From the NCBI GenBank assembly GCA_050015495.1, contig JBEKBH010000006.1:67661-131660 (forward strand): a stretch of DNA of 64,000 bases. The letters are read 5' to 3'. This DNA is from Verrucomicrobiia bacterium (GTDB lineage: Bacteria; Verrucomicrobiota; Verrucomicrobiia; Palsa-1439). Every line of letters begins with the position of its first letter. Positions within the stretch are counted from its first letter, which is position 1. Positions 48,531 through 62,070 of the stretch are shown in pieces. Made by a program: the position numbers and the translations under genes. The notes under the pieces were generated by a model, which saw only the letters and a list, made by a program, of their open reading frames with translations, ran no database searches and was not told where the DNA came from.

Positions 48531-48709
48531 GAAAACATAACCGTCAGTGCGGCAAGCAACCCGACCCAAATGACAAAGGAAATGAATACGAAGACGTAGA
48601 CACCGCGCCACGTGGCAAGGCCCGGCAATCCGGTCGTTTGGTCGCTGTCGGCACCCGCCGGCCCGGGCGGCCCGGCGTGGGAATTGGCGGTGTCGTTCTG
48701 CGGCTTCAT
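48527..48709 (-). CDS. Small membrane protein (putative SSF small subunit, DUF4212-like)
   Basis: 60 aa with one C-terminal TM helix (VYVFVFISFVIWVGLLAALTVMF). Start and stop overlaps with both neighbours. Confidence 0.4.
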   Translation of the reverse strand: MKPQNDTANSHAGPPGPAGADSDQTTGLPGLATWRGVYVFVFISFVIWVGLLAALTVMFS

Positions 48710-51234
48710 TTTCCCAGCGAAATCAGGTTGGCAAACAGCCGGTAGGCGCCGGGCACGCCCTCGGGCAACTCACGGAACCATGATAGCCCGGTATAAACGA
48801 AATACCCGCGACCGTAGCGGGCCACCAAGAGGCTCCCCGTTTTGGGTGACTCGCCGGGGTCGTTGCACGCCAGTAGCGGCGTGAAATGGTCGTCCCATTC
48901 GCTGGCAAAATACAGTCCGCGCTCCTGCACCCAGCCATCGAAATCGGCGGGAACAATGCGGTTGGGTGTTGTAAAGGCCGGATGGTCCGGCGCGAGCAGT
49001 GTCATCGGCGCGGTTGCGTCCGTGACGCGGTCGTGCGAGAGCTTCAAATCGTAGGGGGCGAGACGCGTGTTCTGCAATCCATCGGATGTGTTGTACTGGA
49101 CGATGACGGTGCCGCCGGCTACGACGTATGCGAAAAGCCCCGGCAAATTTTGGGTGAGGTCCGTGCGGGTATTGAAGGCCCGAATGCCGATCACCACCGC
49201 GTCAAGGCCGCGCAGGTGTTCCGCTGTCAGGTCGGTGTCGGTCAGGAACGTGACCGCATAACCCATCCGTTGGAGGCACTCGGCGACCGAGTCGCCGGCG
49301 CCCGGCAGATAACCGATCTGATGACCGCGAATCGCCAGGTCGACACTCAGGGCCTTCAGACGCGCGGGCGGCTGTAACAAGATCGTGGGGATATGGTCGT
49401 GGTGGATTTCGACGTGTCGATTGTGGTAGCTCTTGCCGTCGATCTCGGCGGTAGCCAGGATGTTTGCGGTCGTTGTGTTCGTCGGGGCCGTGACGGTGAA
49501 GGTGAACCGCGCAAGTTCATTGTAGTTGGTCATGGCGAAAGCGTACGTCGCGGGCGTCACCTTCCACTCGGCGGGCGCGTCCAGATGCAGTGTACCGGTC
49601 GCTCCGGCGCGAGCTGAAGTAACCTCGACCGCTATGGGACGGGACGAACCCGGAGCGAACAGCTCCAGGTTTTCGGGAAAATTGAGGGAAACCGGCGGGG
49701 TCACATCCAGACGCCGACGAATCTCGCCTTTCACGCGGTCGCCGATGACTTGCACGGGTTCGTCCGGGATGACCAACGTTTGGCCGCCGACCTCGAAAAC
49801 AAACTCAACCGGAAAAGCAGGCGGATTCTCGGGACGACCGATGAGTGATGGATCGTCCACCCGGAACATTCCGATCGTGCCCTCTTCGCGCAACCAATAC
49901 GGTTGGGTGAACGGCGTGGTGGCGGGGAGAATCCGGGGCGATTCGTGAGTCACACTTTGGTTTGGCTTCAGGTCGGTGTTGATACCAAGTTCGTCTCCGC
50001 CTGCCGGGTAGCGCACGGCAGTCCAGCGCACCGGGACATCGGCCCGCACGATGGCGACATGATGCATTTTGAGCGTTTCGCCCGGCACGGCTTCGGCCAG
50101 CGGTATGGTCGTCTCGACAAACAACCCGAGACAGCCCTGCAAAATGTGGTCGAGCTGTCGGCGTTTGTCTGCGATCACGCTGTCTGCGGGCAGGGCGGCG
50201 AGGCGGCTCCGCAATGCGAGCAATGCCGGCACACTGGCGGCCGGATTCTGCGGATTGAATTGCGCAATGACGTCATCGGCCAACCGCCCGATCTCGGCGC
50301 CGCCGGGGACGCGGCCCCAGGTTGTATCAACGCCGTCGAGAATGTCCTTGGTGGCGGGCTCGCCACCGAGGAGTTGAAAGGTCTCGTTGGCCGTCCCGCG
50401 CGTACCGACGCTGCCAAAGCCCTGCGTCTTGTGCATGCTTCGGCTGAGCGCGGCGATTTCACCGTAGGACTGGCCAAGGACCGGGTTGTAACCGCCGACA
50501 TCGATCTGCAGGCTTGGCGCGTTCGTCTCGCTGTCCGGACCGCGTCCGAATCCTCTCGGGAAACCATTCCAGAGGACGCGTTTTGGTTGCCACGGCTTCA
50601 ACTCGCTGAGTTGCTCGGGAAAAGCGTTGGTGTCCCCGGCGAGCTTGAAGGCTTCGACCGCGAGGATGGCGGACGCCGTGTGGTGACCGTGAGTCCCGCC
50701 GGGCACGGTGGAAAAGCGCGTGATGAGCACATCCGGTCGGAACTCGCGGATGACACGCACAACATCGGCCAGCACCTGATCGCGGTCCCAGATACGAAAC
50801 GTTTCACGGTAATCCTTGGAGAATCCGAAGTCGGTGGCCCGCGTGAAAAACTGCTGGCCGCCGTCAACCCGCCGGGCGGCCAGTAACTCCTGGGTGCGGA
50901 CCACACCCAGTTCTGAGCCCAGCTCGGGACCGATCAAGTTTTGGCCGCCATCGCCACGGGTCAGCGAAAGATAGCCGGTGCGGTAGCCCCGACCGCGGGA
51001 CAGATAGGCAATGAGACGGGTGTTTTCGTCGTCGGGATGTGCGGCGATGTACAGCACGCTGCCCATTTCGCGGAAACCACGGAGTTCCTGCAAGATCGCC
51101 GATGTTGATTGAGGTTCGGCGGCGTAGATGTCGATGGGGAATAGGGTCAGCGCACAGCCGGCGGCGGCGAGGAAGCTGAGGAGCCAGCGGATGTGGCGGG
51201 AGGCAGACCTCTTAAATCGAATTCTGGCATGCAT
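48706..51234 (-). CDS. Multidomain PIG-L/LmbE-family deacetylase (842 aa) with signal peptide and C-terminal GATase1/ThuA-like domain
   Basis: YIAAHPDDENTRLIAYL...HGHHTAS PIG-L motifs. C-terminal ..LDAVVIGIRAFNTR...YVVAGGTVIVQYN. Confidence 0.7.
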   Translation of the reverse strand: MHARIRFKRSASRHIRWLLSFLAAAGCALTLFPIDIYAAEPQSTSAILQELRGFREMGSVLYIAAHPDDENTRLIAYLSRGRGYRTGYLSLTRGDGGQNLIGPELGSELGVVRTQELLAARRVDGGQQFFTRATDFGFSKDYRETFRIWDRDQVLADVVRVIREFRPDVLITRFSTVPGGTHGHHTASAILAVEAFKLAGDTNAFPEQLSELKPWQPKRVLWNGFPRGFGRGPDSETNAPSLQIDVGGYNPVLGQSYGEIAALSRSMHKTQGFGSVGTRGTANETFQLLGGEPATKDILDGVDTTWGRVPGGAEIGRLADDVIAQFNPQNPAASVPALLALRSRLAALPADSVIADKRRQLDHILQGCLGLFVETTIPLAEAVPGETLKMHHVAIVRADVPVRWTAVRYPAGGDELGINTDLKPNQSVTHESPRILPATTPFTQPYWLREEGTIGMFRVDDPSLIGRPENPPAFPVEFVFEVGGQTLVIPDEPVQVIGDRVKGEIRRRLDVTPPVSLNFPENLELFAPGSSRPIAVEVTSARAGATGTLHLDAPAEWKVTPATYAFAMTNYNELARFTFTVTAPTNTTTANILATAEIDGKSYHNRHVEIHHDHIPTILLQPPARLKALSVDLAIRGHQIGYLPGAGDSVAECLQRMGYAVTFLTDTDLTAEHLRGLDAVVIGIRAFNTRTDLTQNLPGLFAYVVAGGTVIVQYNTSDGLQNTRLAPYDLKLSHDRVTDATAPMTLLAPDHPAFTTPNRIVPADFDGWVQERGLYFASEWDDHFTPLLACNDPGESPKTGSLLVARYGRGYFVYTGLSWFRELPEGVPGAYRLFANLISLGK

Positions 51235-51333: not shown

Positions 51334-51903
51334 CTATTTCTTGACCGTGAACGGCACGGAGAACTGTGTGCTTTCCCACATCATTTTCAGCACACCGCCT
51401 CCGGCCGGGTTCTTTTCGACGGCAATCGTGAACTGATCCACCGGCTTGTCCAACGCGTCCTTCTTCAAATCAATCCGCGCCACATCCAGAGCCTCGTCGT
51501 ACACCTGCTTCGAGTCACGCGGGCTAACACCCCATTGACCGATCTGTTTGTTGACGATCAGTTTGGCCGTGCCACCTTCATTGGGCAGGGTCCACAAGGT
51601 GAAAGCGCCCGCCGGGATCGTTGTCTCGCCAAAGGCGATGGGTTTCTGCGTGATGAGGAGTGTGGCTTCGTCGGCCCCGGTGCGCCAGACCTTGCCGTAG
51701 GGCACGAGGCCACCCCAGATTTTTCGTTCCTCACCCGTCCGGGGATCCTTGGTATATGGACGCCCGTATACAATCGTGACTCGATTGCCGTCGATGACCG
51801 TGCTGATCGTCTCGTGCGGGCTGAAACGCTTTTGCTGGGCCATGAGCGGCGATGCGCTGAGGATGACTGCGGCAACAACGAGCATGGATTTGAACTGGTT
51901 CAT
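51334..51903 (-). CDS. DUF2911-family secreted protein
   Basis: Signal peptide. GGLVPYGKVWRTGADEAT signature of DUF2911. Confidence 0.65.
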   Translation of the reverse strand: MNQFKSMLVVAAVILSASPLMAQQKRFSPHETISTVIDGNRVTIVYGRPYTKDPRTGEERKIWGGLVPYGKVWRTGADEATLLITQKPIAFGETTIPAGAFTLWTLPNEGGTAKLIVNKQIGQWGVSPRDSKQVYDEALDVARIDLKKDALDKPVDQFTIAVEKNPAGGGVLKMMWESTQFSVPFTVKK

Positions 51904-51969
51904 GCTATCTCCCGTGCGTTGGGGTTATTCTGGACTGAAATCCCATTTCCTCGAAATCCATCGCCACCA

Positions 51970-52848
51970 TCAATGGAGGCTGGAGATCAAATCCTGATTC
52001 ATCTTCACGAATGAGCTGTTGGGGCCTTCCGCCTGGACCGCCAACTCGCTGGACTGTTTGGCGGCGGCAATCGCGCCGTCTTTGTCTCCCTGTTTCGCCA
52101 GAATCCTGGCCTTCAGGTTCAGCAGTTCGTACGCGATCCTGGGCTTGTCAGCGAGCCCGGTATCCAGCCAGGCGAGGGCCTTTTTCAGATCCAGATCGTG
52201 GTTGAAATAGAACGTCGCCGCCTGAAAGTAAAACTGCGGCTGCTTCTTGTCGGGCGACGCCAGGGCGGCCTCGATCTGCGGCACCACCTTGCTGACGACG
52301 TCAAGTTCGAGTTTGATGGGGACGACCGTCTTGTCCCAAGACAGGTTGATGATGGCCGATTCGTCGCGGATATGATTGAACTCGATCACGAATGTTTCGA
52401 TGGACGTGTCCGCAAGTTGTACAGGCGTGACCTTGAAGCGCACCAGATCGTTCTCCTGCTTGTAACCGAAGGCCCCAAACGAGTTCGTGTCCTTGGAGAT
52501 GATCACGGTCCATTCTTTTTCACCCGGTATCGTGTAGAGCGCATATTTGCCCGCGGGAACCTCGTTGCCGTTGAGCTTCACGGCGGTCGAAAAGGAAATC
52601 TTCGTGGATGCGTTCGCGCCGGTGCGCCAGACCACATCGTAGGGAACGATACCGCCAAAGATTGTCCGCCCTTTGACACTAGGTCGTGAATATACGATTT
52701 CAATGTCCGTAAGACCGACGTGCTGCTTCAGGGTCGCGGTGGGGCTGGCCGCGGGGAAATCGACTTTGGGTGCTTGCGCGAGGAGCCCCGTGGTGAAGAC
52801 CGACCCGAGAGCAAACACAATAGAAAACCAACGTGCCGTTGTGTTCAT
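51970..52848 (-). CDS. DUF2911 domain protein with C-terminal TPR-like helical domain, secreted
   Basis: GGIVPYDVVWRTGANASTKISF. C-terminal helical repeats. Start at M85 of the longer ORF, giving signal peptide MNTTARWFSIVFALGSV. Confidence 0.6.
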   Translation of the reverse strand: MNTTARWFSIVFALGSVFTTGLLAQAPKVDFPAASPTATLKQHVGLTDIEIVYSRPSVKGRTIFGGIVPYDVVWRTGANASTKISFSTAVKLNGNEVPAGKYALYTIPGEKEWTVIISKDTNSFGAFGYKQENDLVRFKVTPVQLADTSIETFVIEFNHIRDESAIINLSWDKTVVPIKLELDVVSKVVPQIEAALASPDKKQPQFYFQAATFYFNHDLDLKKALAWLDTGLADKPRIAYELLNLKARILAKQGDKDGAIAAAKQSSELAVQAEGPNSSFVKMNQDLISSLH

Positions 52849-53124
52849 GATCGGAAAAACTAGCACAATCGAGGCGAAAGGAAAGCGGGAAGTGGTGGGT
52901 ATGAGACGGCAACGCAAGTGGGACATTGGCGCCATTTCCGATACGCACTGGCTGCGGCGTCCCGAAGGCGTCGATGCTCTCCAATCCGTCGCCAGCCACG
53001 AGGCCACGATAGACGCCGGGAAGTTGCTTCGGGATGCGCGGCGAATTGTCTTCCTTTGATGCCGGGGAGAACCTGTATGCTCAAACAACTCGTCACCCAT
53101 TCCAAAAGCACATTCCCAGCGCCC

Positions 53125-54459
53125 TCAAGCCCACACGCCGGCAATCCTGGTCTGGCAGTACTTGCACTTCCCGTCGGCGATGTCCAGTCGCGTAACGGCG
53201 AAGATGTCGCGCTCGACAATGGCCCGATGACAATTCGGGCAGAACGTTGTCTCGGCATCCGGCAACCCGCGGACGTTCCCCACATAGGCATAACGCAGAC
53301 CCGCCCGGCGCGCGATGTCGCGGGCGGCCACCAGCGTGTCCACCGGCGTTGGCGGCAAATGCTCCAGCTTATGCGCCGGGTGAAAACGCGAGAAATGCAG
53401 CGGGTGATCCGGTCCGATGTTGCTGACCAGCCACTCGCACATGCGTTTGATTGTGTCCAGATCGTCCGTGTACGTCGGCACCACCAGGTTGATGACCTCG
53501 AACCACACATCCATCTCCTGTAACGTGACCAGCGTGTCGAGAATCGGCTGCAGATGGCCCGAGTTGAGCCTCTTGTAAACTTCGTCATCGAACCCTTTCA
53601 AATCCACGTGCGCGGCGTCAAGGTGCGTGGCCAGATCCCGTAGCGGCGTCTCATTGATGAAACCGCAGGTGACGAAGATATTCTTCAGATTGTGCGCGTG
53701 GGCGAGCCGAGCCGTGTCCGTTACGTACTCGTAGTAGTCCGTCGGCTCGGAATAGGTGTAGGCAATCGACGGGCACCCCAACGCCTCGGTCACGGCCACG
53801 ACGTCTTCGGGCAACATTGTCAGCCGCTGCGTGTCGTCCAGCGTGAGTGATTCCGGCAACGGCGGGCGCAGTCGCCGTGAGGGGCCGGTCGGGTCCTTGG
53901 TTTCTTCCGGTTGTTTCTGCGAGATTTCCCAGTTCTGACAATTCAAGCAGCGGAAACCGCAGCCGGAAGTGGCCAGCGAAAAACTCGTCGTGCCCGGATG
54001 AAAATGGAACAGCGGCTTCTTCTCGACGGGATCGACGTGAAAAGTGCACGGATCGGCATAGGCCATCGTATAGAGCGTGCCGCCCCGATTGACTTTGTTA
54101 CGGCAATGGCTGCGGTCGCCGGGCGCGAGCAGGCAGTTGTTCGGGCAGATTTTGCACTGGACGTTGTCGCCGAGTTTGAGATAGTGCGCCGCTTCCTTCA
54201 CCCATCCACGCTGTTGCCAGAGCGCCCACACCTTGTCACTCGGTCCACCGCCCCGGAACGCGCCGGTGAGCGCGATCTCCTCGCGGGCCTGCCGGAACAG
54301 ATACCACGCCAGCCCGCTGACACCAGCGGCACACGCCAGCCCGCTGACACCATAACGGATCGCTTCCCGCCGCGTTATGGGTCGCTGCGGAGCGCCCAGC
54401 AGTGCAGCATCGAGTCCATCCTCTCTCTCCGGTCCCGTCGGTTTCACCACCGGATCCAT
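53125..54459 (-). CDS. AmmeMemoRadiSam-system radical SAM enzyme (PFL-activase-like), with N-terminal Tat-like RR motif
   Basis: CGFRCLNCQNWEIS (CxxxCxxC) cluster. Genomic pairing with the Memo-AMMECR1 protein. N-terminal ITRREAIRYGVSGLACAAGVSGLA. Confidence 0.8.
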   Translation of the reverse strand: MDPVVKPTGPEREDGLDAALLGAPQRPITRREAIRYGVSGLACAAGVSGLAWYLFRQAREEIALTGAFRGGGPSDKVWALWQQRGWVKEAAHYLKLGDNVQCKICPNNCLLAPGDRSHCRNKVNRGGTLYTMAYADPCTFHVDPVEKKPLFHFHPGTTSFSLATSGCGFRCLNCQNWEISQKQPEETKDPTGPSRRLRPPLPESLTLDDTQRLTMLPEDVVAVTEALGCPSIAYTYSEPTDYYEYVTDTARLAHAHNLKNIFVTCGFINETPLRDLATHLDAAHVDLKGFDDEVYKRLNSGHLQPILDTLVTLQEMDVWFEVINLVVPTYTDDLDTIKRMCEWLVSNIGPDHPLHFSRFHPAHKLEHLPPTPVDTLVAARDIARRAGLRYAYVGNVRGLPDAETTFCPNCHRAIVERDIFAVTRLDIADGKCKYCQTRIAGVWA

Positions 54460-54713
54460 CGCTTCCTTCGCATCGCGAGGTAAATGCCACCCAGCGCGTG
54501 CAGCCCAAACATTACCAGCAGCGGCACGTGCAGCAGGCGGTGAATGGCGAGCGCCATCCTCGGGTTGGCCCGACCGCCGAGCGTGAACTGGCCGCTCATC
54601 ACATACCCCGTTGTGATATAGGTTAGCACCAACGCCAGCAAAAACCAACTCGTAAACCGCAGCGTGCGGATGACTATGTAGCCCGTCCGAATTCGCCGGC
54701 GCGGCTGGTTCAT
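54444..54713 (-). CDS. Small 2-TM membrane protein (89 aa), translationally coupled
   Basis: Two hydrophobic helices (FTSWFLLALVLTYITTGYV and LLHVPLLVMFGLHALGGIYLA). ATGA overlap with the upstream gene stop. Confidence 0.35.
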   Translation of the reverse strand: MNQPRRRIRTGYIVIRTLRFTSWFLLALVLTYITTGYVMSGQFTLGGRANPRMALAIHRLLHVPLLVMFGLHALGGIYLAMRRKRWIRW

Positions 54714-56830
54714 CGAGTTCCTCCCGCCAACAGCCACACCGCGCTCGCGGCATTCAAACCCCCCGCCAACAGGCACGTTACCGTCACCCCCAGAAGTGGA
54801 ATGAGAAGTGTGCTGGCCAGCAGTGCGCCGAGGCACGCGCCGGTGAAGTCCGCAGTGTACAATCTCGACGCCGTTCCGGTCACATCGCGGAAGCTCGTCC
54901 GCGTCGCCAGGGGAAACTCCATGCCGACCATGGACGCCAACGCGAGCGTGAGCAGGGCGATCACCGCGTGGATGATCGGTAAGGGAGCGTGCTCGAGCGA
55001 TTTCAATCCAGCCGGGAGTATCGCCGCGAGAAGCGCGATCCCCAACGCGAGTCCCGCCAACGGAATACGGTTGCCGATGGGGCGATACCGCGTCGCCGCG
55101 GACGCCCCCACCGCCAAGCCAGCCATGAACATCGTGACGATCACACCAACTTGACGATACACGGAGCCGCACAGAATTTGGAAGCCCAGGAGCAGTACAA
55201 CCTCCAACGCCGAGGCCGCAAACCCGGAAGCGAAAATCGCAAACGGTACGGCCTGCATCCGCGCAAGGTACGCCGCGAAGCCGGAGACCAACACGATCGC
55301 CCACAGGCCGTAGCGCTCACGGAACTGGCTCATCCAATGCAGGAGGTGATAGTAGTATAGCACCGGGTTGAAGTCGGTGTTCACTGTCGCCCGCGCCGCA
55401 GTGGCTCGCTGCATGTCCGCCAGCCGGTCGGGCGTCAACACCGCGCTGAGATAATGCCGGTTCACCAGGTGAGTTGACACGCCCGACTGCTCGATGCGCG
55501 TGGAGATGTCTGCGTAGAGTTCGCCGTCCGAGGCCAGGAAGAATACCCGCCCGCCGGGAATCACGAGTTGGTGGCGAAACGTCCGCTGCAAGGTCGCGGA
55601 TGCCGAGGCCAGGACGCGCGCCAGTTCGGGACTGACGAAGTTTTCATAGTGGCCCAGCGAGAAGGCGAACACACCCCCCGGCGCGAGCACCCGCTTCGCC
55701 TCGTCAAAGAACTCGGAAGTGAAGAACCGGTTGATCTGCGACGTGGATGGCGGCGGCACATCCACAATCACCACGTCAAATGTCTCCCGCGTGCGCTTCA
55801 CGAACAACCGGCCGTCGGTGTTCAACACCCGGATCCGCGGGTCGGCGAGGCTATCCGGAAGGAAGCGACGGCCCACTGTGATGATCAGGGGGTCGAGTTC
55901 CACGTACGTCACCTCCGCGACGCCGTACTTGAGAATCTCACGCGCCGTGCCAGACACGCCGCCGGCAATCAGCAAGACACGCTGGGCGCGGGGTCGTTGC
56001 GACATCGCGTAATGCACGGTCTCCTCGACCTCCTCGACGTTGTGCGTCGCAATCACCGGGACGCCGTTCTCGATAAAGTTCAACTGGCCGGCGGATTCGG
56101 TCACGACCAGTTTACCGTAGGGCGAGTTGCCGCGAAACACGACGCGCTGGCTGGAAAACAGCCGCGCGGTGGAGGCACCGTCCACGTCCATCGCGACCAA
56201 CGCCGGCACCAATCCCGCGGCCATGATACCCGCCACCGCCGCAACCCAGTATTGCCGTTCATGCCAGGCGAGCCACCCGGCAACCAGCAGACAGACAAGC
56301 GCCGGTAGGCTCAGGAGCGCGAAATGGTCGAACCGCCGCACCAGGACATAGGTAAATAACGCTCCACCGAGGACGCTGCCAACACTGTCAGTAACGTACA
56401 CGGTGCCGATGGCGCCGCTGCCTTGGGGCGTCGCGAGCGCGCCGCAGGCCAGCGTCAGCATATAGCCGGACACAATGCAGAACGGTGCCAGCCACAACAG
56501 ACTCGCGATCACGGTTTCCGACAGGCCAATCGCTGCGCCCCGGACAAAGACCACGTTGCGCAGTTCGCGCAGCATGAACACTTGGGCCAACGGCAGGAGA
56601 GCGACGAACACGAGCAGGAGCGCCAGTGTGCGTTGCGGGTGACGCACGCGACCGGCCGTCCGTCCGAGCCAGGAGCCAAGTCCCGTCAACAACAACCAGT
56701 TGCCGAGGATCACGCCAAGAGCCAGTTCATTGCCGCTGAACACGCACAGCATCTCGCGCATGAGCGCCAGTTGCGTCATCGCCGCCATGACGCCCAGCGC
56801 GCAGACTGCGAGCCCCACGCGGCGGTTCAC
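54710..56830 (-). CDS. Fused polytopic-membrane / spermidine-synthase-like (polyamine aminopropyltransferase fold) protein
   Basis: Spermidine synthase motifs VLLIAGGVSGTAREILKYG..EVTYVELD and FDVVIVDVPPP between N- and C-terminal multi-TM blocks. GTG start at 56830 overlaps the upstream TGA. Confidence 0.7.
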   Translation of the reverse strand: MNRRVGLAVCALGVMAAMTQLALMREMLCVFSGNELALGVILGNWLLLTGLGSWLGRTAGRVRHPQRTLALLLVFVALLPLAQVFMLRELRNVVFVRGAAIGLSETVIASLLWLAPFCIVSGYMLTLACGALATPQGSGAIGTVYVTDSVGSVLGGALFTYVLVRRFDHFALLSLPALVCLLVAGWLAWHERQYWVAAVAGIMAAGLVPALVAMDVDGASTARLFSSQRVVFRGNSPYGKLVVTESAGQLNFIENGVPVIATHNVEEVEETVHYAMSQRPRAQRVLLIAGGVSGTAREILKYGVAEVTYVELDPLIITVGRRFLPDSLADPRIRVLNTDGRLFVKRTRETFDVVIVDVPPPSTSQINRFFTSEFFDEAKRVLAPGGVFAFSLGHYENFVSPELARVLASASATLQRTFRHQLVIPGGRVFFLASDGELYADISTRIEQSGVSTHLVNRHYLSAVLTPDRLADMQRATAARATVNTDFNPVLYYYHLLHWMSQFRERYGLWAIVLVSGFAAYLARMQAVPFAIFASGFAASALEVVLLLGFQILCGSVYRQVGVIVTMFMAGLAVGASAATRYRPIGNRIPLAGLALGIALLAAILPAGLKSLEHAPLPIIHAVIALLTLALASMVGMEFPLATRTSFRDVTGTASRLYTADFTGACLGALLASTLLIPLLGVTVTCLLAGGLNAASAVWLLAGGTR

Positions 56831-58464
56831 TTCTCCGATTCCTTGAAGGATTCTACGCGGTAGATGAACACCTGCGTGCCCGGTGCGCGCCAGTCGTCCG
56901 CGGCTGCGCCCGCCTTTTCCGCGAGCGTGTCCAGAAACCGCGTCTTGTCTGGTATCTGCTCCCAAACCTGCGGCAGGTACGTCGCCGTTCTACCGTCCAT
57001 CCGCAGGACGACGCCATCGCGATATGGCTGCAATTTGGCCAGCAGGTCTTCCGGCGAACTGAACGCCAGTGGCTCCGGCACCGTGAGCACGCTGATTTCG
57101 ATCTCGACCTTGTCGAGTTCGTCCGGCCGGACGGGCTGGAATCGGGGGTCACGCGTTGCGGCGTTCAGGGAGTTGTCCATCACCGCCTTGTAGAGCGGCT
57201 CCTGGGGTTGGATGTGGCCGATGCACCCGCGCAGGCGACCCTGTTCGGTGAGCGTGACGAAGCATCCTTTTACATCCGCGAACTTCCGCGGAAAAGCGTT
57301 GGTCTTCACTTCCGGCAGTTTGTCGTTGGTGACAACCTCCGTGAGGCTCTGTCGGGCCAGTCGCAGCAGTTGTTCCCGCTCTTCATGGCTGAACGCCTGC
57401 AGCGATGGGGAGCAAAAGGCGATGGCGGCGTAACCGACAACGCTGTCCTTCCGTCCGGCTGTGTCGCCGCTGTTACGAGCATCGAGCAATGTGGCTTTCC
57501 AGCCTTTTGCTCGTGCCAATGAAAGCAACGTCAGCACGCCGGTCTTGCCGCAGGCCTCCTCAGCCTTCATCCGGTCAACATCAAGATCGCAGATGGCGGA
57601 CACGCAACGCGCATCCTTCTCGCGCGCGATGTCATATGGATAGTAGTGACTCAGGTCCGTGCTGACCACCAGTAGCGTGTTGTTGTCGAGACGGTCCGCC
57701 AACGCCTGCGCAAGCTTCGCGGGGTCAACCTCGCCGGTAATGATCGAGACGAGCGAGAAATTCGTCAGCGTCTTCTGCAGGAATGGCACCTCCACTTCCG
57801 CCGAATGCTCCCACGTCTCCGGAGTATCCTCACCGAATTCCGGCTCCGGATGCGAGGCCTGCTTCGACCACGGAGGACGCTGCACCAGACACTTCGGTTC
57901 GGGCACGAAGGGCCCGGCTTCCGCCCATTGCCTGGCCTTGGGCGATACGGACACAAGCCCAAGCGGTGTCCGATACGCGTCCGCGGCGATCACTGACGCG
58001 CCTCGAAACAACGCGTAGTGACTCGGCGCTAGGATGACGACGGTATCGTACACGCGCCCCGCCAGCAGCCGGTAGGCTTCGGCAGCGACCGGGCCGGAAA
58101 ACTCGTAACCGGCGTGCGGACACAAGATGGCGCGCAACTCGCCTTCAATCACCCGCGGTTTCGCGCCCGCCAGAAGGGCGTCAATTGTCTGCGACAGTTG
58201 TGCCGCATCCCGGGGATAGAACAACCCGGCTACGGCCGGTTCTCTCACGACCAGCGGCGCCTTGAGATTCTCAGACGATCCGGTCGTGCTGCCACCGGAT
58301 TGCGCAGTACGTTGAATGTTGGTCGCGACCGCGCTGGCGCTCAGACCGACCGCTTCCACCGGAGACGCGACCGCGATGACCGTCAGGATCGAGGCCACAA
58401 AGAGGACGGTACGGCAGAAGGATCCAGGCGAAGTGTAGTGCTTACGGCCGCGCGGCATTTTCAT
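56827..58464 (-). CDS. Memo-family / AMMECR1 fusion protein (AmmeMemoRadiSam system proteins B and A fused) with N-terminal signal peptide
   Basis: Memo region ..RAILCPHAGYEFSGPVAAEAY... C-terminal AMMECR1 region ..GCFVTLTEQGRLRGCIGHI... N-terminal hydrophobic TVLFVASILTVIAVASPVEA. Confidence 0.75.
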   Translation of the reverse strand: MKMPRGRKHYTSPGSFCRTVLFVASILTVIAVASPVEAVGLSASAVATNIQRTAQSGGSTTGSSENLKAPLVVREPAVAGLFYPRDAAQLSQTIDALLAGAKPRVIEGELRAILCPHAGYEFSGPVAAEAYRLLAGRVYDTVVILAPSHYALFRGASVIAADAYRTPLGLVSVSPKARQWAEAGPFVPEPKCLVQRPPWSKQASHPEPEFGEDTPETWEHSAEVEVPFLQKTLTNFSLVSIITGEVDPAKLAQALADRLDNNTLLVVSTDLSHYYPYDIAREKDARCVSAICDLDVDRMKAEEACGKTGVLTLLSLARAKGWKATLLDARNSGDTAGRKDSVVGYAAIAFCSPSLQAFSHEEREQLLRLARQSLTEVVTNDKLPEVKTNAFPRKFADVKGCFVTLTEQGRLRGCIGHIQPQEPLYKAVMDNSLNAATRDPRFQPVRPDELDKVEIEISVLTVPEPLAFSSPEDLLAKLQPYRDGVVLRMDGRTATYLPQVWEQIPDKTRFLDTLAEKAGAAADDWRAPGTQVFIYRVESFKESEK

Positions 58465-58579
58465 TTCCGATCAACTCCCACGCGACCCGAAGGCGTTTGC
58501 GCCGACCGCACACGCCCACCGACTTGGCAGAATTTTCGCCCCGTGCCCGACCCTTGGTCAAGTCGGAAATCCGCCTCAG

Positions 58580-59866
58580 TCAGGGCGGTAGAGGTTTGCC
58601 CTTGGTCTCGGGAGCGAACGGCAAGATCAGAAGGCCGACCAGATAGACCACCGCCACCGCGCTGGCGGCGCGGCCAAAGCTACCCAGCGCTGTGACGAGA
58701 CAGCCGGTCAGAAACGGGCCGGTCGACGCCAGCGCCCGCCCGACGTTGAAACAAAAGCCCGCGCCGGTCGCGCGAAGCCCCGTTGGGTACAATTCCGGCA
58801 GGTAAATCGGAAAACCGCTGAAGATCCCGTTGTTGAAAAAACCCAGCAACGGCAGCAACAGCAGCACGTGAACGTAGGATCGCGGCGTCAGAAACGTGAT
58901 CGGGAGCATCACCAGGCTACCCACGCACATCGACGCGAATACCGGGCGTCTACCCAAACGGTCGGCCAACGGACCGAAGCTCAGATAACCGAATACTGCT
59001 CCCACGTTGAGCACCATCGTCGCGTAGCTGACCCGGCCTGTGAGCTCCGAGGGACTCAAATCTCGGAGATCGGGCAATGCGCGGATGAGTGTCGGCGTCC
59101 AATTTGTCGCCCCCCACAGGCCAAACACGGCGACAAACGCCAGTCCGGACCCGACCATGGTGGAGCGCACCAACCCCGGCGCGAACAATTCCGCCAGTCT
59201 TTGTCGGCCCCGAGTGCGAGACTGTCGTTCCTCGGCGCGGGCGTTGATCCATCGCTCCGGCTCCTTGACCCACAGGCGCACGAGGAGTGCCACGGCGGCC
59301 GGCACGATGCCGACCACAAACACCGGCCGCCACCCATGGTGGCGCAGGAGCAGGGCGATAATTGCTGCCACCAGGAATCCCGCAGCCCAGGCTGACTGCA
59401 GCAGACCCGCAGCTTGGGCCCGCTTTTCTTCGGGAAATACTTCGGCCACGAGTGACGCGCCGGCCGCCCACTCCCCACCGATGCCCAGCGCCGTCAGGAA
59501 CCGAAACAGCGCCAGCTGCCACCAGGTCCTCGATAGAGCTGCCATGCCCGTGAACACCGCATAAATGAGGATCGTGAGAACCAGTACCTTGGTCCGTCCG
59601 AAATTGTCCGCAACGACGCCGAAGAAGACGCCCCCGATGGCCCAACCGATCAGGAAAACCGAAAAGATGATACCGCCGTACCAGCCGATGACGTCAGCAT
59701 TGACGGGCCCGACTCCCGGCGCGCGCAACAGGTCGTGAAGTGCCGGCTGCATGACCAGCGCGTAGATCGTCGCGTCCATCGAGTCGAACACCCAGCCGAG
59801 CCACGCCACGAACAGCACCAGCCATTGGTAGCGTGTGACGCCGTCGCGCCACGAAGTGGGTCTCAC
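58580..59866 (-). CDS. MFS transporter
   Basis: 12 TM helices. MFS motif ...GRTKVLVL. Confidence 0.8.
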   Translation of the reverse strand: MRPTSWRDGVTRYQWLVLFVAWLGWVFDSMDATIYALVMQPALHDLLRAPGVGPVNADVIGWYGGIIFSVFLIGWAIGGVFFGVVADNFGRTKVLVLTILIYAVFTGMAALSRTWWQLALFRFLTALGIGGEWAAGASLVAEVFPEEKRAQAAGLLQSAWAAGFLVAAIIALLLRHHGWRPVFVVGIVPAAVALLVRLWVKEPERWINARAEERQSRTRGRQRLAELFAPGLVRSTMVGSGLAFVAVFGLWGATNWTPTLIRALPDLRDLSPSELTGRVSYATMVLNVGAVFGYLSFGPLADRLGRRPVFASMCVGSLVMLPITFLTPRSYVHVLLLLPLLGFFNNGIFSGFPIYLPELYPTGLRATGAGFCFNVGRALASTGPFLTGCLVTALGSFGRAASAVAVVYLVGLLILPFAPETKGKPLPP

Positions 59867-59966: not shown

Positions 59967-60767
59967 CTATGGTTTCGCGGTCTCGTCGCCGGCCTTCTTC
60001 ATGAACGGCGTGAACAGGTCCATCGGGATCGGGATAAACGTCGTCGTGTTGTGCTCGCTGGCGATTTCCGACATCGTTTGCAGGTAGCGCAACTGCAGCG
60101 CGATGGGCTGGGCTGAAATCATGCCCGCCGCCTGGACGAGTTTTTCGGCCGCCTGAAATTCGCCTTCCGCATTGATGATCTTCGCGCGGCGCTCCCGCTC
60201 GCTTTCCGCTTGTTTGGCCATCGCGCGCTTCATCGAGTCCGGCAGGACCACGTCGCGAACTTCGACGGAGGTGACCTTGACACCCCACGGCTCGGTGTGA
60301 CGGTCGATGATTTCCTGGAGCTGCTGGTTGATCTTGTCGCGCTGGGCCAGCAACTCGTCGAGTTGCGACTGGCCAAGCACACTGCGGAGTGTCGTCTGGG
60401 CGATCAGCGAACTGGCTTTGAGGAAATTCTCTACCTTGACCACCGCTGCCTGGGGATCAACGACGCGGAAGTAAACGACAGCGTCCACCGTCGCGGGCAC
60501 GTTGTCGCGCGTCATGACCTCCTGCTTGGGAACGTCGATGGTGATAACGCGAAGGTCCATCTTCACCATGCGGTCCACAACCGGGATGAGCAGGATCAGC
60601 CCGGGCCCTTTTGCGCCGAGCAGTTTGCCCAATCGAAAAATCACCCCGCGCTCGTACTCGCGGAGGATGCGGATCATCTGGGGTAGCACGACCGCGCCCA
60701 ACACGAACAACACCACAATCCAAGGGATCAGACCAAACGATTTTTCCGCGGCGTCCATGATACGCAC
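59967..60767 (-). CDS. SPFH/Band-7 (stomatin-like) protein
   Basis: N-terminal TM anchor plus PHB domain (YERGVIFRLGK...DLRVITIDVPKQEVMTRDNV). Confidence 0.85.
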   Translation of the reverse strand: MRIMDAAEKSFGLIPWIVVLFVLGAVVLPQMIRILREYERGVIFRLGKLLGAKGPGLILLIPVVDRMVKMDLRVITIDVPKQEVMTRDNVPATVDAVVYFRVVDPQAAVVKVENFLKASSLIAQTTLRSVLGQSQLDELLAQRDKINQQLQEIIDRHTEPWGVKVTSVEVRDVVLPDSMKRAMAKQAESERERRAKIINAEGEFQAAEKLVQAAGMISAQPIALQLRYLQTMSEIASEHNTTTFIPIPMDLFTPFMKKAGDETAKP

Positions 60768-60771
60768 TCCT

Positions 60772-62070
60772 TTAGATGAGTTTGGGTTTCACTTTCAACG
60801 TCAGTCCCTGCATCTCGACAATCTCAACGCGCTGGCCTTGCGCCACGGGCACGTCACTGACCGCCTGCCAGTATTCTCCTTCGACAAACACTTTGCCGCC
60901 CCGCCCGTCAATGTCTGTCAACGCCGTCACCACCGTGCCGCGCATCGTCTCCGCCCCGGCCTTGACGGGCATCCGTTGCGCCCGCAAGCCGCTGCCGACC
61001 ACGAAAATGAAAAACAATGCCGTCACCACCGTGGCCGGTACCACCCAGGTCAGCGACAGCCTCAAGTACGGATCGGAACGGTCAAACAGCATGAGCGCGC
61101 CGAGGAAAAACGCCACGATACCGCCGGCCGTCAACACCCCGTGCGTCGGGGCAAACGCATCGATGAGAAACAGCGCGATCGCCACGCCGAACAACACCAG
61201 TCCGGCGACGTTCATCGGCAGCGCCGTCGCCAGATACAGCAACAACACCAGCGCGATCACGCCTGCCACACCGGGCAGAATCGCGCCGGGGCTGGTCAGT
61301 TCCCCAATGATCCCGTACATCACGATCAACGTCAGCACCAGCATCATCTGCGGATGCGCGATGGCCTGAAAAACCCTTTCGCGCAGGGACAGCGGAATCT
61401 CCACCACCGTCGCCGTAGCCGTCTTCAGCTTCTTGCCATTCCCCTCGCGTCCGTCAAGTTGCCTCAACAGGTCGTCGCGGTCCTTCGCGATGAAATCGAT
61501 GACTTTCATCTGCAGTGCCTTTTCCGCGCTGGTCGCCGCGCTCTCGCGCACCGACGACCGCGCCCACTCCGCGTTCCGTTTTCGTTTGACGGCGATGCCC
61601 TCGATGTAACTGCTGTAAAAATTCTCCAGCTTCTCCTTCATCGTTTTGTCGATCTCGTCGCCGCCCATCTCGACGGGGTGCGCCGCGCCGATGGCGGTTG
61701 CCGGCGCCATCGCGGCTACATCAGCCGCCAGCGTGATGAAACAGCCGGCGCTGCCGGCCTGCGCCCCTTGTGGCGCGACGTAGACGACCGTCGGCACCGT
61801 CGAGGCAAGGAACTTCTGCACGATCTCCTTGGTTGGATCGAGCAGTCCGCCGGGGGTGTCGAGTTGGATGAGCAAACATTGCGCGCCTCGCGACGCCGCC
61901 TCATCGACGGCGCGGGAAATATAGCTGGCCGTTGCCGGTCCGATCACGCCGTTAACTGTAATAAAGCACACGATCTCTGCGTGCCCGGTCCCCTGACCAG
62001 TCCCACGAAGGGTTGGGATTGCCGCGAGAAGAACGATGCAGGCGGCTACAATTGCCCCCCGGCGTTTCAT
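60772..62070 (-). CDS. NfeD-family membrane-bound ClpP-class serine protease (stomatin operon partner)
   Basis: ClpP-like N-terminal domain (TPGGLLD, GAAHPV). Central TM helices. C-terminal OB-fold. Confidence 0.8.
   Translation of the reverse strand: MKRRGAIVAACIVLLAAIPTLRGTGQGTGHAEIVCFITVNGVIGPATASYISRAVDEAASRGAQCLLIQLDTPGGLLDPTKEIVQKFLASTVPTVVYVAPQGAQAGSAGCFITLAADVAAMAPATAIGAAHPVEMGGDEIDKTMKEKLENFYSSYIEGIAVKRKRNAEWARSSVRESAATSAEKALQMKVIDFIAKDRDDLLRQLDGREGNGKKLKTATATVVEIPLSLRERVFQAIAHPQMMLVLTLIVMYGIIGELTSPGAILPGVAGVIALVLLLYLATALPMNVAGLVLFGVAIALFLIDAFAPTHGVLTAGGIVAFFLGALMLFDRSDPYLRLSLTWVVPATVVTALFFIFVVGSGLRAQRMPVKAGAETMRGTVVTALTDIDGRGGKVFVEGEYWQAVSDVPVAQGQRVEIVEMQGLTLKVKPKLI

Follow-up and report, generated by a model that had tools for sequence, protein, structure and literature searches.

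This study concerns a window of 64,000 nucleotides from a Verrucomicrobiia bacterium (GenBank assembly GCA_050015495.1, contig JBEKBH010000006.1, positions 67,661 to 131,660 of the forward strand) and, within it, an AmmeMemoRadiSam system encoded on the minus strand from 58464 down to 53125. Four genes lie there head to tail. They encode a Memo–AMMECR1 fusion (AmmeMemoRadiSam proteins B and A, 545 residues, 56827..58464), a fusion of a major facilitator superfamily (MFS) transporter with a SpeE-like domain (706 residues, GTG start, 54710..56830), an 89-residue two-helix membrane protein (54444..54713) and the AmmeMemoRadiSam radical S-adenosylmethionine (SAM) enzyme (444 residues, 53125..54459). 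Coordinates are those of the window, and all features of the operon are on the minus strand. A preliminary description of this DNA, made from the letters and their open reading frames (ORFs), had proposed an AmmeMemoRadiSam system of unusual architecture, and this holds: three family hidden Markov models (HMMs) are passed within one overlapping operon.

Radical SAM enzymes are regarded as cytoplasmic, and they need both SAM and a low-potential electron donor. The triad of AMMECR1, Memo and a radical SAM enzyme is already known, as is the Memo–AMMECR1 fusion (Balaji & Aravind 2007, PMC2034487), and our literature search found no function reported for the triad. In the present system, an extracytoplasmic location of the soluble parts is well supported by export signals and by the topology predicted for the larger membrane protein. 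Taking the parts together, we infer that the system as a whole is extracytoplasmic, a point that the preliminary description had overlooked.

Results

The four genes are tightly packed. The GTG at 56830 that starts the larger membrane protein overlaps the TGA of the fusion gene as GTGA, as first described, and the ATG at 54713 overlaps the membrane-protein TGA as ATGA, which agrees with the coupling proposed earlier for the 89-residue, two-helix protein. The ATG of the radical SAM gene, at 54459, lies 16 nt inside the 3' end of the 89-residue gene. Within this last overlap (54444-54459) the end of the small protein (RRWGWIK and stop) and the start of the enzyme (MGMDQ) are read in different frames, and both peptides are conserved in loci of Verrucomicrobiota and Planctomycetota (L001, L007-L025 and similar), a pattern that suggests a constrained overlap serving translational coupling. 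Two mechanical gene calls were too long at the 5' end. For the radical SAM enzyme (ORF 53125..54753, 542 residues) the start was placed at ATG 54459 because orthologues have 444 residues and a conserved MDP/MGMDQ start, and for the membrane protein, whose longest ORF begins at TTG 56965 (751 residues), it was placed at GTG 56830 because 14 close homologues are called at 705-707 residues. Base composition is even over the operon and its flanks. The gene order is identical in a Verrucomicrobia metagenome-assembled genome (MAG; L001, 64% identity), and Verrucomicrobiae MAGs from peat and bog samples encode membrane proteins with 91% identity to the one in the window.

In the fusion, the Memo domain (PF01875) spans residues 75-348 and the AMMECR1 domain (PF01871) residues 367-540, and a single ORF passes both TIGR04336 (Memo, protein B; 218.6 bits, cut-off 26) and TIGR04335 (AMMECR1, protein A; 198.6 bits, cut-off 99). 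The Memo residues H117, H149, D270 and H273 are kept in all of the 50 fusions compared and H220 in 49, with both H220 and C305 conserved in at least 95%. The AMMECR1 domain has RGCIG at residues 412-416 and DPRF at 439-442; RGCxG and DxRF are invariant in the 50 fusions, the motifs being defined as RGChG and DxR[aromatic] (PMC2034487). Since the active-site residues and motifs are retained, the Memo and AMMECR1 domains are probably active. The N-terminus is a predicted Sec-type signal peptide (residues 1-38, 58351..58464; Kyte-Doolittle peak 2.12), with a positive n-region (MKMPRGRK), a hydrophobic stretch at residues 19-36 and a closing ASPVEA/VG site. Signal-like hydrophobic segments occur in 49 of the 50 Memo or Memo–AMMECR1 orthologues whose N-terminus is intact, and a lipobox-like cysteine in 20. 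The earlier claim that proteins A and B are fused behind a signal-like segment is thus confirmed.

The radical SAM enzyme passes TIGR04337 with 328.2 bits (cut-off 220) and has the CX3CX2C cluster motif as CGFRCLNC (residues 167-174, 53938..53961). The cysteines of this motif are invariant in a 13-sequence alignment, as are further sets at residues 102-119 and 407-435, and three such sets would suit a multi-cluster protein that folds and is loaded with cofactor ahead of export. Within the same alignment, a Pro/Arg-rich insertion of about 25 residues that lies 14 residues past the CX3CX2C motif (residues 189-213, 53821-53895) is confined to the window and an Opitutia locus (L014).

Ahead of its conserved core, the enzyme carries a twin-arginine-like signal or anchor (residues 26-55, 54295..54384), consisting of RPITRREAIRYG and an h-region; ITRREAIRYG and the hydrophobic stretch of 20 residues after it occupy residues 28-55. 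Orthologues have [ST]RR[ED]F[LI]K at the homologous position. An [RK]R pair and a hydrophobic stretch lie 5' of the core in 55 of 57 orthologues, in canonical form in 49 (for example ISRREFIK and ITRRDFLK; in Bacteroidota SKREFL), and in many of them the signal ends in a classical AxA cleavage site. The motif resembling those of the twin-arginine translocation (Tat) pathway, reported in the preliminary description, is therefore present in the window and its N-terminal position is kept in the family. A mis-called start, which the preliminary description had named as a possible refutation, is excluded because the segments are conserved in the orthologues of both the enzyme (55 of 57) and Memo (49 of 50). 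With PF10518 (TAT_signal), eight of nine orthologue N-termini score 8.8-21.5 bits, below the cut-off of 22.7, and several match the Rieske Tat-signal model PF10399 weakly. The Rieske protein, with its uncleaved Tat anchor, is a likeness in that a twin-arginine motif and a hydrophobic helix stand on an Fe-S protein that folds before export. Pfam-confirmed tatC and tatA genes adjoin the module in seven archaeal loci (DPANN, Altiarchaeota), and neither gene occurs within the window. We know of no radical SAM enzyme shown to be a Tat substrate, and a full-text literature search for radical SAM with twin-arginine and periplasmic found none.

The AlphaFold2 (AF2) model of the enzyme is moderate (pLDDT 74.6, cluster loop disordered) and was used for its fold neighbour only. 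The closest solved fold is the pyruvate formate-lyase (PFL)-activating enzyme (3CB8, E 6e-11, TMt 0.67), the best secondary HMM match is to the same activase, and a sequence search of the PDB gave no match. The PFL-activase class acts on protein substrates, and its partial barrel suits a macromolecular substrate. In contrast to glycyl-radical activases, the enzyme does not pass TIGR02493 (45.6 bits, cut-off 231.75), and it has extra N- and C-terminal cysteine clusters and an export signal. No glycyl-radical enzyme is encoded in the loci surveyed.

The larger membrane protein passes NF037959, 'fused MFS/spermidine synthase' (77.7 bits, cut-off 40), and a Pfam comparison gave no MFS family, MFS_1 included, at E<=0.01. 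Its AF2 model, built with a 29-sequence alignment (pLDDT 88.7, pTM 0.87), has seven helices, a mixed alpha/beta domain and then seven further helices. An inverted repeat of seven-helix halves, like that of UraA and SLC26, was rejected, given that hhalign aligns transmembrane helices (TM) 1-6 of the N-lobe with TM9-14 of the C-lobe as a parallel repeat (probability 97.6%, E 2.6e-12), as in the MFS. This 6+6 arrangement implies an MFS fold with TM7 and TM8 as a hairpin inserted in the central loop, and a complete 12-helix MFS transporter fold, overlooked in the preliminary description, is strongly supported by the model. The N-lobe (TM1-6, residues 1-190, 56261..56830) has conserved Q20, R25, E26, G33-N34-E35, W45, Y145 and D148, and the C-lobe (TM9-14, residues 527-706, 54713..55252) has conserved Q551, Y558, Y658 and D661. 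Between the lobes, the extra helix TM7 (residues 194-213, 56192..56251; family mean hydropathy 1.89) leads out to the SpeE-fold domain (residues 214-505, 55316..56191), and the extra helix TM8 (residues 508-523, 55262..55309; family mean hydropathy 2.53) leads back to the cytoplasmic side.

Charge is distributed unevenly over the loops of this protein. Lysine and arginine total 18.5 on the even loops, on the side of the N-terminus, against 2.7 on the odd loops over 218 family sequences, and the segments before TM7 and after TM8 are basic. At TM7 itself the preceding loop is rich in lysine and arginine (2.3) and the segment that follows is net acidic. This positive-inside bias would put both termini in the cytoplasm and predicts that the SpeE-like domain is exposed outside the membrane, on the side of the exported partners, which had also gone unnoticed before. 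The membrane-embedded, conserved acidic residues E26, E35, D148 and D661 fit a cationic substrate, and in structure the protein comes nearest, within the MFS, to organic-amine antiporters. Identity to DHA1-type organic-cation antiporters (VMAT2, VAChT, NorA, SotB) is 10-16%, and compared with them the membrane protein has two additional helices and an outward-facing domain of 290 residues. A final homologue search with the family profile returned proteins from MAGs and metagenomes only and none from cultured organisms.

The SpeE fold of the inserted domain is evident (PF01564, 91 bits), and its best solved relatives are aminopropyltransferases (E 1e-21, 27% identity), but none of the equivalog models is passed: TIGR00417 scores 86 (cut-off 249.55), PRK00811 111 (cut-off 260) and PRK03612 180 (cut-off 472). 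The cofactor motif GGG[D/E]G is replaced by AGGVSGT (residues 289-295, 55946..55966), and in an alignment to 1UIR, GGGEGAT corresponds to AGGVSGT and DLTDP to DVPPP. The acidic residue of the canonical motif binds the aminopropyl amine of decarboxylated SAM (dcSAM), whereas the carboxylate of SAM is presumably repelled by it; in a plant enzyme the mutation D103I abolishes spermidine synthase activity and yields a weak putrescine N-methyltransferase, V106T next to it raises the SAM-using methyltransferase activity, and the equivalent D-to-I change in the Thermotoga enzyme lowers kcat about 2000-fold (PMC3725402). At this position the window has V292, and V, I or L stands there in 180 of the 218 relatives and an acidic residue in none; position 295 is mostly T. 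The two positions thus parallel D103I and V106T, the changes that turn a spermidine synthase into a SAM-using methyltransferase. The ribose-binding E311 and the adenine-binding D339 are invariant in the 218 relatives. Because the acidic residue is lost and these adenosine-binding residues are kept, the pocket appears to be of the SAM type, and the residue pattern strongly supports a domain built for SAM and not for dcSAM. Putrescine N-methyltransferase is a known case of a SpeE fold switched from dcSAM to SAM, with GGGIGGT against GG[VIL][SA]GT here and the same changes of Asp to a hydrophobic residue and of Val to Thr three residues on. It differs in being a soluble plant enzyme with roughly 60% identity to plant spermidine synthases, and the likeness is one of cofactor motif and not evidence that the present domain methylates putrescine.

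The counterpart of the SpeE DSSDP motif and gatekeeping loop is DVPPPSTSQINRFFTSEFF (residues 357-375, 55706..55762). The position of its first Asp, D357 in the window, is D in 115 and N in 67 of the 218 relatives, and that of the second, P360 in the D357-V-P-P360-P of the window, is D in 108, E in 50 and P in 27. Given the failed equivalog models and the altered AGGVSGT and DVPPP motifs, the 'bona fide aminopropyltransferase core' of the preliminary description could not be upheld.

A jackhmmer search recovered the 89-residue protein from 32 of the 83 loci, which belong to Verrucomicrobiota, Planctomycetota, archaea and some Thermodesulfobacteriota-like lineages. W23, G41, H58 and H72 are invariant, and both histidines are in the second helix, 14 residues apart. 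Among 16 members scanned, Ni_hydr_CYTB (prokaryotic cytochrome b561) matches weakly in 13 and Sdh_cyt (succinate dehydrogenase cytochrome b) in six, all under cut-off; the protein of the window reaches 21.4 bits with Ni_hydr_CYTB (cut-off 30.1), and a PDB sequence search with it gave nothing meaningful. From these sequence features it is reasonable to regard the protein as a putative haem-binding electron carrier.

Redox proteins were also seen near some of the related operons. In a Chloroflexota MAG (L067:3-1061), the ORF immediately 5' of the SpeE-like gene combines in one protein a DUF4405-like helix pair, which resembles the 89-residue protein, an RR motif and a nitroreductase domain, and a relative of the window with 91% identity (L004) encodes a secreted nitroreductase-family protein 2.2 kb upstream of the operon. 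In L001 (3535-6023), divergent genes just upstream of the operon encode a member of the cytochrome b561 family (31.8 bits, which is above the cut-off) and a multihaem cytochrome c of 670 residues.

The linkage of these genes was surveyed in 80 loci from species-representative genomes, gathered with a 12-sequence alignment of the membrane protein, with partner genes located by phmmer against six-frame ORFs. Linkage was counted for genes within 8 kb in the 48 SpeE-anchored loci whose flanks both reach 3 kb or more. Of these loci, 46 contain one or more AmmeMemoRadiSam genes, 35 all three and 38 a fused Memo–AMMECR1 gene. The loci cover bacteria and archaea from ten phyla or more (Verrucomicrobiota, Planctomycetota, Bacteroidota, Ignavibacteriota, Nitrospirota, Thermodesulfobacteriota, Spirochaetota, DPANN archaea, Methanosarcinales and Altiarchaeota), and the identity of the SpeE-like proteins goes down to about 31%. 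An independent scan of metagenome contigs, anchored on the radical SAM gene, gave 80 enzymes, 55 of them with an RR or KR signal. Where Tat-type loci had at least 4 kb on both flanks, a SpeE-like gene lay nearby in 14 of 20, including a divergent copy in L127. In a rough neighbour-joining tree of 137 radical SAM cores, one contiguous block of about 70, among them those of the window, of archaea and of Planctomycetota and Bacteroidota, consists throughout of Tat-type, SpeE-linked enzymes. The linkage of the SpeE-like protein with AmmeMemoRadiSam is thus well supported as strong and clade-specific but not absolute, and an obligatory role of the SpeE-like protein in every exported system was rejected, given that the remaining six of the 20 Tat-type loci have no copy nearby.

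Several loci depart from the common arrangement. Three of the six Tat-type loci that lack the SpeE-like gene (L115:5767-6768, L128:5791-6873 and L148:5751-6881) have instead a gene for a DUF362 protein with a twin-arginine signal immediately upstream of the radical SAM gene, possibly as an accessory component of another kind. In eight loci a Memo–AMMECR1 fusion with a signal occurs together with a radical SAM enzyme that has none, and the SpeE-like gene is present in three of them. In five metagenome loci (L096, L099, L104, L129 and L139) the fusion has a signal or lipobox and the adjacent radical SAM protein starts at its core, which would leave the membrane between the two enzymes, except where the radical SAM enzyme is co-exported with a partner. 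One locus (L003:12169-13634) has the fusion and the SpeE-like gene with no radical SAM gene within 8 kb; beyond an inserted acyltransferase gene it has ORFs of 103 and 385 residues without Pfam matches.

Other genes flank the operon. Directly downstream, on the same strand, are two tandem DUF2911 paralogues (51334-53100), of which at least the shorter has a signal-like N-terminus; the Pfam comparison covered the longer only. Upstream, again on the same strand, there are genes for an ordinary transporter of the MFS_1/Sugar_tr type (58580-59866) and for an SPFH/Band-7 and NfeD pair (59967-62070), and none of these upstream genes recurs in the related loci. An 842-residue secreted protein (48706-51234) has an AHPDDE motif near its N-terminus and, judged by eye only, is presumably similar to LmbE/PIG-L-type deacetylases. 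In the 115-nt gap 5' of the fusion gene there is a sigma-70-like promoter match (58532..58561, minus strand) with 9 of 12 consensus positions. Promoter-type matches in the region do not exceed shuffle expectation, and this one marks a position only and is not functional evidence.

Discussion

The explanation that we consider best, at a probability of roughly one half, is that the locus is a four-gene operon of an extracytoplasmic AmmeMemoRadiSam subtype with the following mechanism. The MFS part would export a small organic cation, most likely SAM, which is a sulfonium cation, and the outward SpeE-like domain would capture it. This domain would then either deliver SAM to the radical SAM enzyme, which Tat would have exported with its cofactors in place, or itself transfer a SAM-derived alkyl group. 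A dimer of the 89-residue protein may bind haem b and move electrons across the membrane to reduce the radical SAM cluster. The PFL-activase-like enzyme, together with metal-binding Memo and cysteine-containing AMMECR1, would modify a substrate in the cell envelope, a protein or an isoprenoid or lipid and not RNA. The complete picture, in which radical SAM chemistry proceeds outside the membrane with SAM export by the MFS part, docking at the SpeE-like domain and electron wiring through the two histidines, and in which AMMECR1 and Memo act on the envelope and not on RNA, would be the first recognisable case of such chemistry there. It is more tentative, and as a whole we regard it as possible but less likely than not.

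A number of observations weigh against this explanation. To our knowledge, a SAM exporter of such a kind is not known and extracytoplasmic SAM is unprecedented. A donor at the level of quinol or b-type haem is a poor reductant for a radical SAM cluster, the 89-residue protein is limited to 32 of the 83 loci, and it never reaches the cut-off of a cytochrome b HMM. The topology depends on hydropathy, the positive-inside rule and the AF2 model. In the radical SAM protein of the window the Tat motif (TRREAIR) is degenerate and does not match PF10518, there is no obvious AxA cleavage site, and the segment may be an uncleaved anchor. The six well-flanked Tat-type loci that have no SpeE-like gene nearby also count here, and the three SpeE-linked radical SAM enzymes without a signal imply that feeding SAM to an exported radical SAM enzyme is not the sole role of the SpeE-like protein.

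Those three loci would be easier to understand if the MFS–SpeE protein were itself the enzyme. The MFS part would then flip or present an envelope lipid, such as a polyprenyl lipid, or export an amine, the outward SpeE-like domain would methylate this substrate or add a 3-amino-3-carboxypropyl group to it, and the radical SAM, Memo and AMMECR1 proteins would act further on the molecule. In support of this, P359, P361, T363, Q365, N367, R368, T371, E373 and F374, after strand 4, are very strongly conserved, beyond what pure cofactor holding needs, and the D or N at the position of the catalytic base (115 and 67 of 218) is typical of motif IV of amino-group methyltransferases. Burroughs and colleagues are also said to have linked Memo gene contexts to isoprenoid modification in 2019. 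However, SAM would still be required on the outer face, so the supply problem stays, the substrate site has no constant second acidic residue, the position being D, E or P (P360 in the window), and lipid-biosynthesis genes do not recur in the 83 loci. We consider this alternative possible, if rather unlikely as a full account; it is compatible with the extracytoplasmic subtype and overlaps it rather than contradicting it.

A genuine polyamine aminopropyltransferase, in a system that acts at the membrane to make, use or modify either a polyamine or an aminopropyl donor, was the role suggested by the preliminary description. The PF01564 match and the aminopropyltransferase structures among the best relatives speak for it, as do D357 in the window and the organic-amine antiporters among the nearest MFS structures. 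Nevertheless, TIGR00417, PRK00811 and PRK03612 remain far under their cut-offs, the residue at 292 is never acidic in a position where the equivalent mutation abolishes activity, and the second Asp, which binds putrescine, is Pro in the window. Neither polyamine genes nor genes for S-adenosylmethionine decarboxylase (AdoMetDC) recur in the locus neighbourhoods, where speD was not searched for explicitly. The proposed role is therefore not borne out, and we judge it improbable.

It is about as improbable, or slightly more so, that the N-terminal segments are mere membrane tethers and that the catalytic domains stay in the cytoplasm, where SAM and reductant are available. Extracytoplasmic SAM would not be needed in this case, and the radical SAM signals of Verrucomicrobiota and Planctomycetota, that of the window included, look like uncleaved anchors, with no clear cleavage site and with charged residues following. 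However, arginines N-terminal of the hydrophobic stretch predict an N-in, C-out orientation, and many orthologues have classical cleavable Tat peptides that end in AxA. The lipobox cysteine in 20 Memo fusions and the adjacent tatC and tatA genes of seven archaeal loci likewise speak for export, and the strongly hydrophobic TM7 and TM8 would be purposeless were the SpeE-like domain inside. Finally, although the classical three-gene system (TIGR04335-7) has no such members, we give hardly any credence to the SpeE-like and 89-residue genes being unrelated passengers in one copy of the system, given the neighbourhood survey, which shows the SpeE-like gene to be a conserved partner (46 of 48 loci from bacteria and archaea, at identities as low as about 31%), the overlapping start and stop codons, and the coherent clade of SpeE-linked radical SAM enzymes.

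The extracytoplasmic subtype shares with the classical AmmeMemoRadiSam system all three families, the AMMECR1 motifs, the His/Asp/Cys site of Memo and the Memo–AMMECR1 fusion. It differs in the export signal on every soluble component and in the two extra membrane proteins, MFS–SpeE and the two-helix protein, in the operon. An RNA-base target, as proposed for the classical system, is hard to square with an extracytoplasmic location. Public records name the homologues of the membrane protein, under NF037959 and the membrane-fused, aminopropyltransferase-like PRK03612, 'fused MFS/spermidine synthase', and our literature search found no publication on this family. The name implies a spermidine synthase, whereas here the dcSAM-specific acidic residue is missing, a two-helix hairpin inserted between the MFS lobes carries the SpeE domain, and the gene is tied to AmmeMemoRadiSam genes. 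The 2019 work of Burroughs and colleagues reportedly also described the classical system and surveyed Memo gene contexts. We found no description of the export signals of the system, the Tat-targeted radical SAM enzyme, the link between MFS–SpeE and AmmeMemoRadiSam or the two-histidine protein, some of which that survey may hold.

A large clade of radical SAM enzymes that spans bacteria and archaea and carries canonical Tat signals challenges the view that these enzymes are cytoplasmic only. Its partners with Sec or lipoprotein signals and the MFS protein with a SAM-type pocket are candidates for the supply of cofactor and electrons to the outer face of the membrane. To judge from the cofactor motif, thousands of database entries of the MFS–SpeE family that are named 'spermidine synthase' are probably misnamed. 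The question of what AMMECR1 and Memo do is also constrained, in that the substrate of the extracytoplasmic subtype must be in the cell envelope. If this is true, AMMECR1 and Memo, which are conserved and disease-linked families, would act on an envelope molecule and not on RNA.

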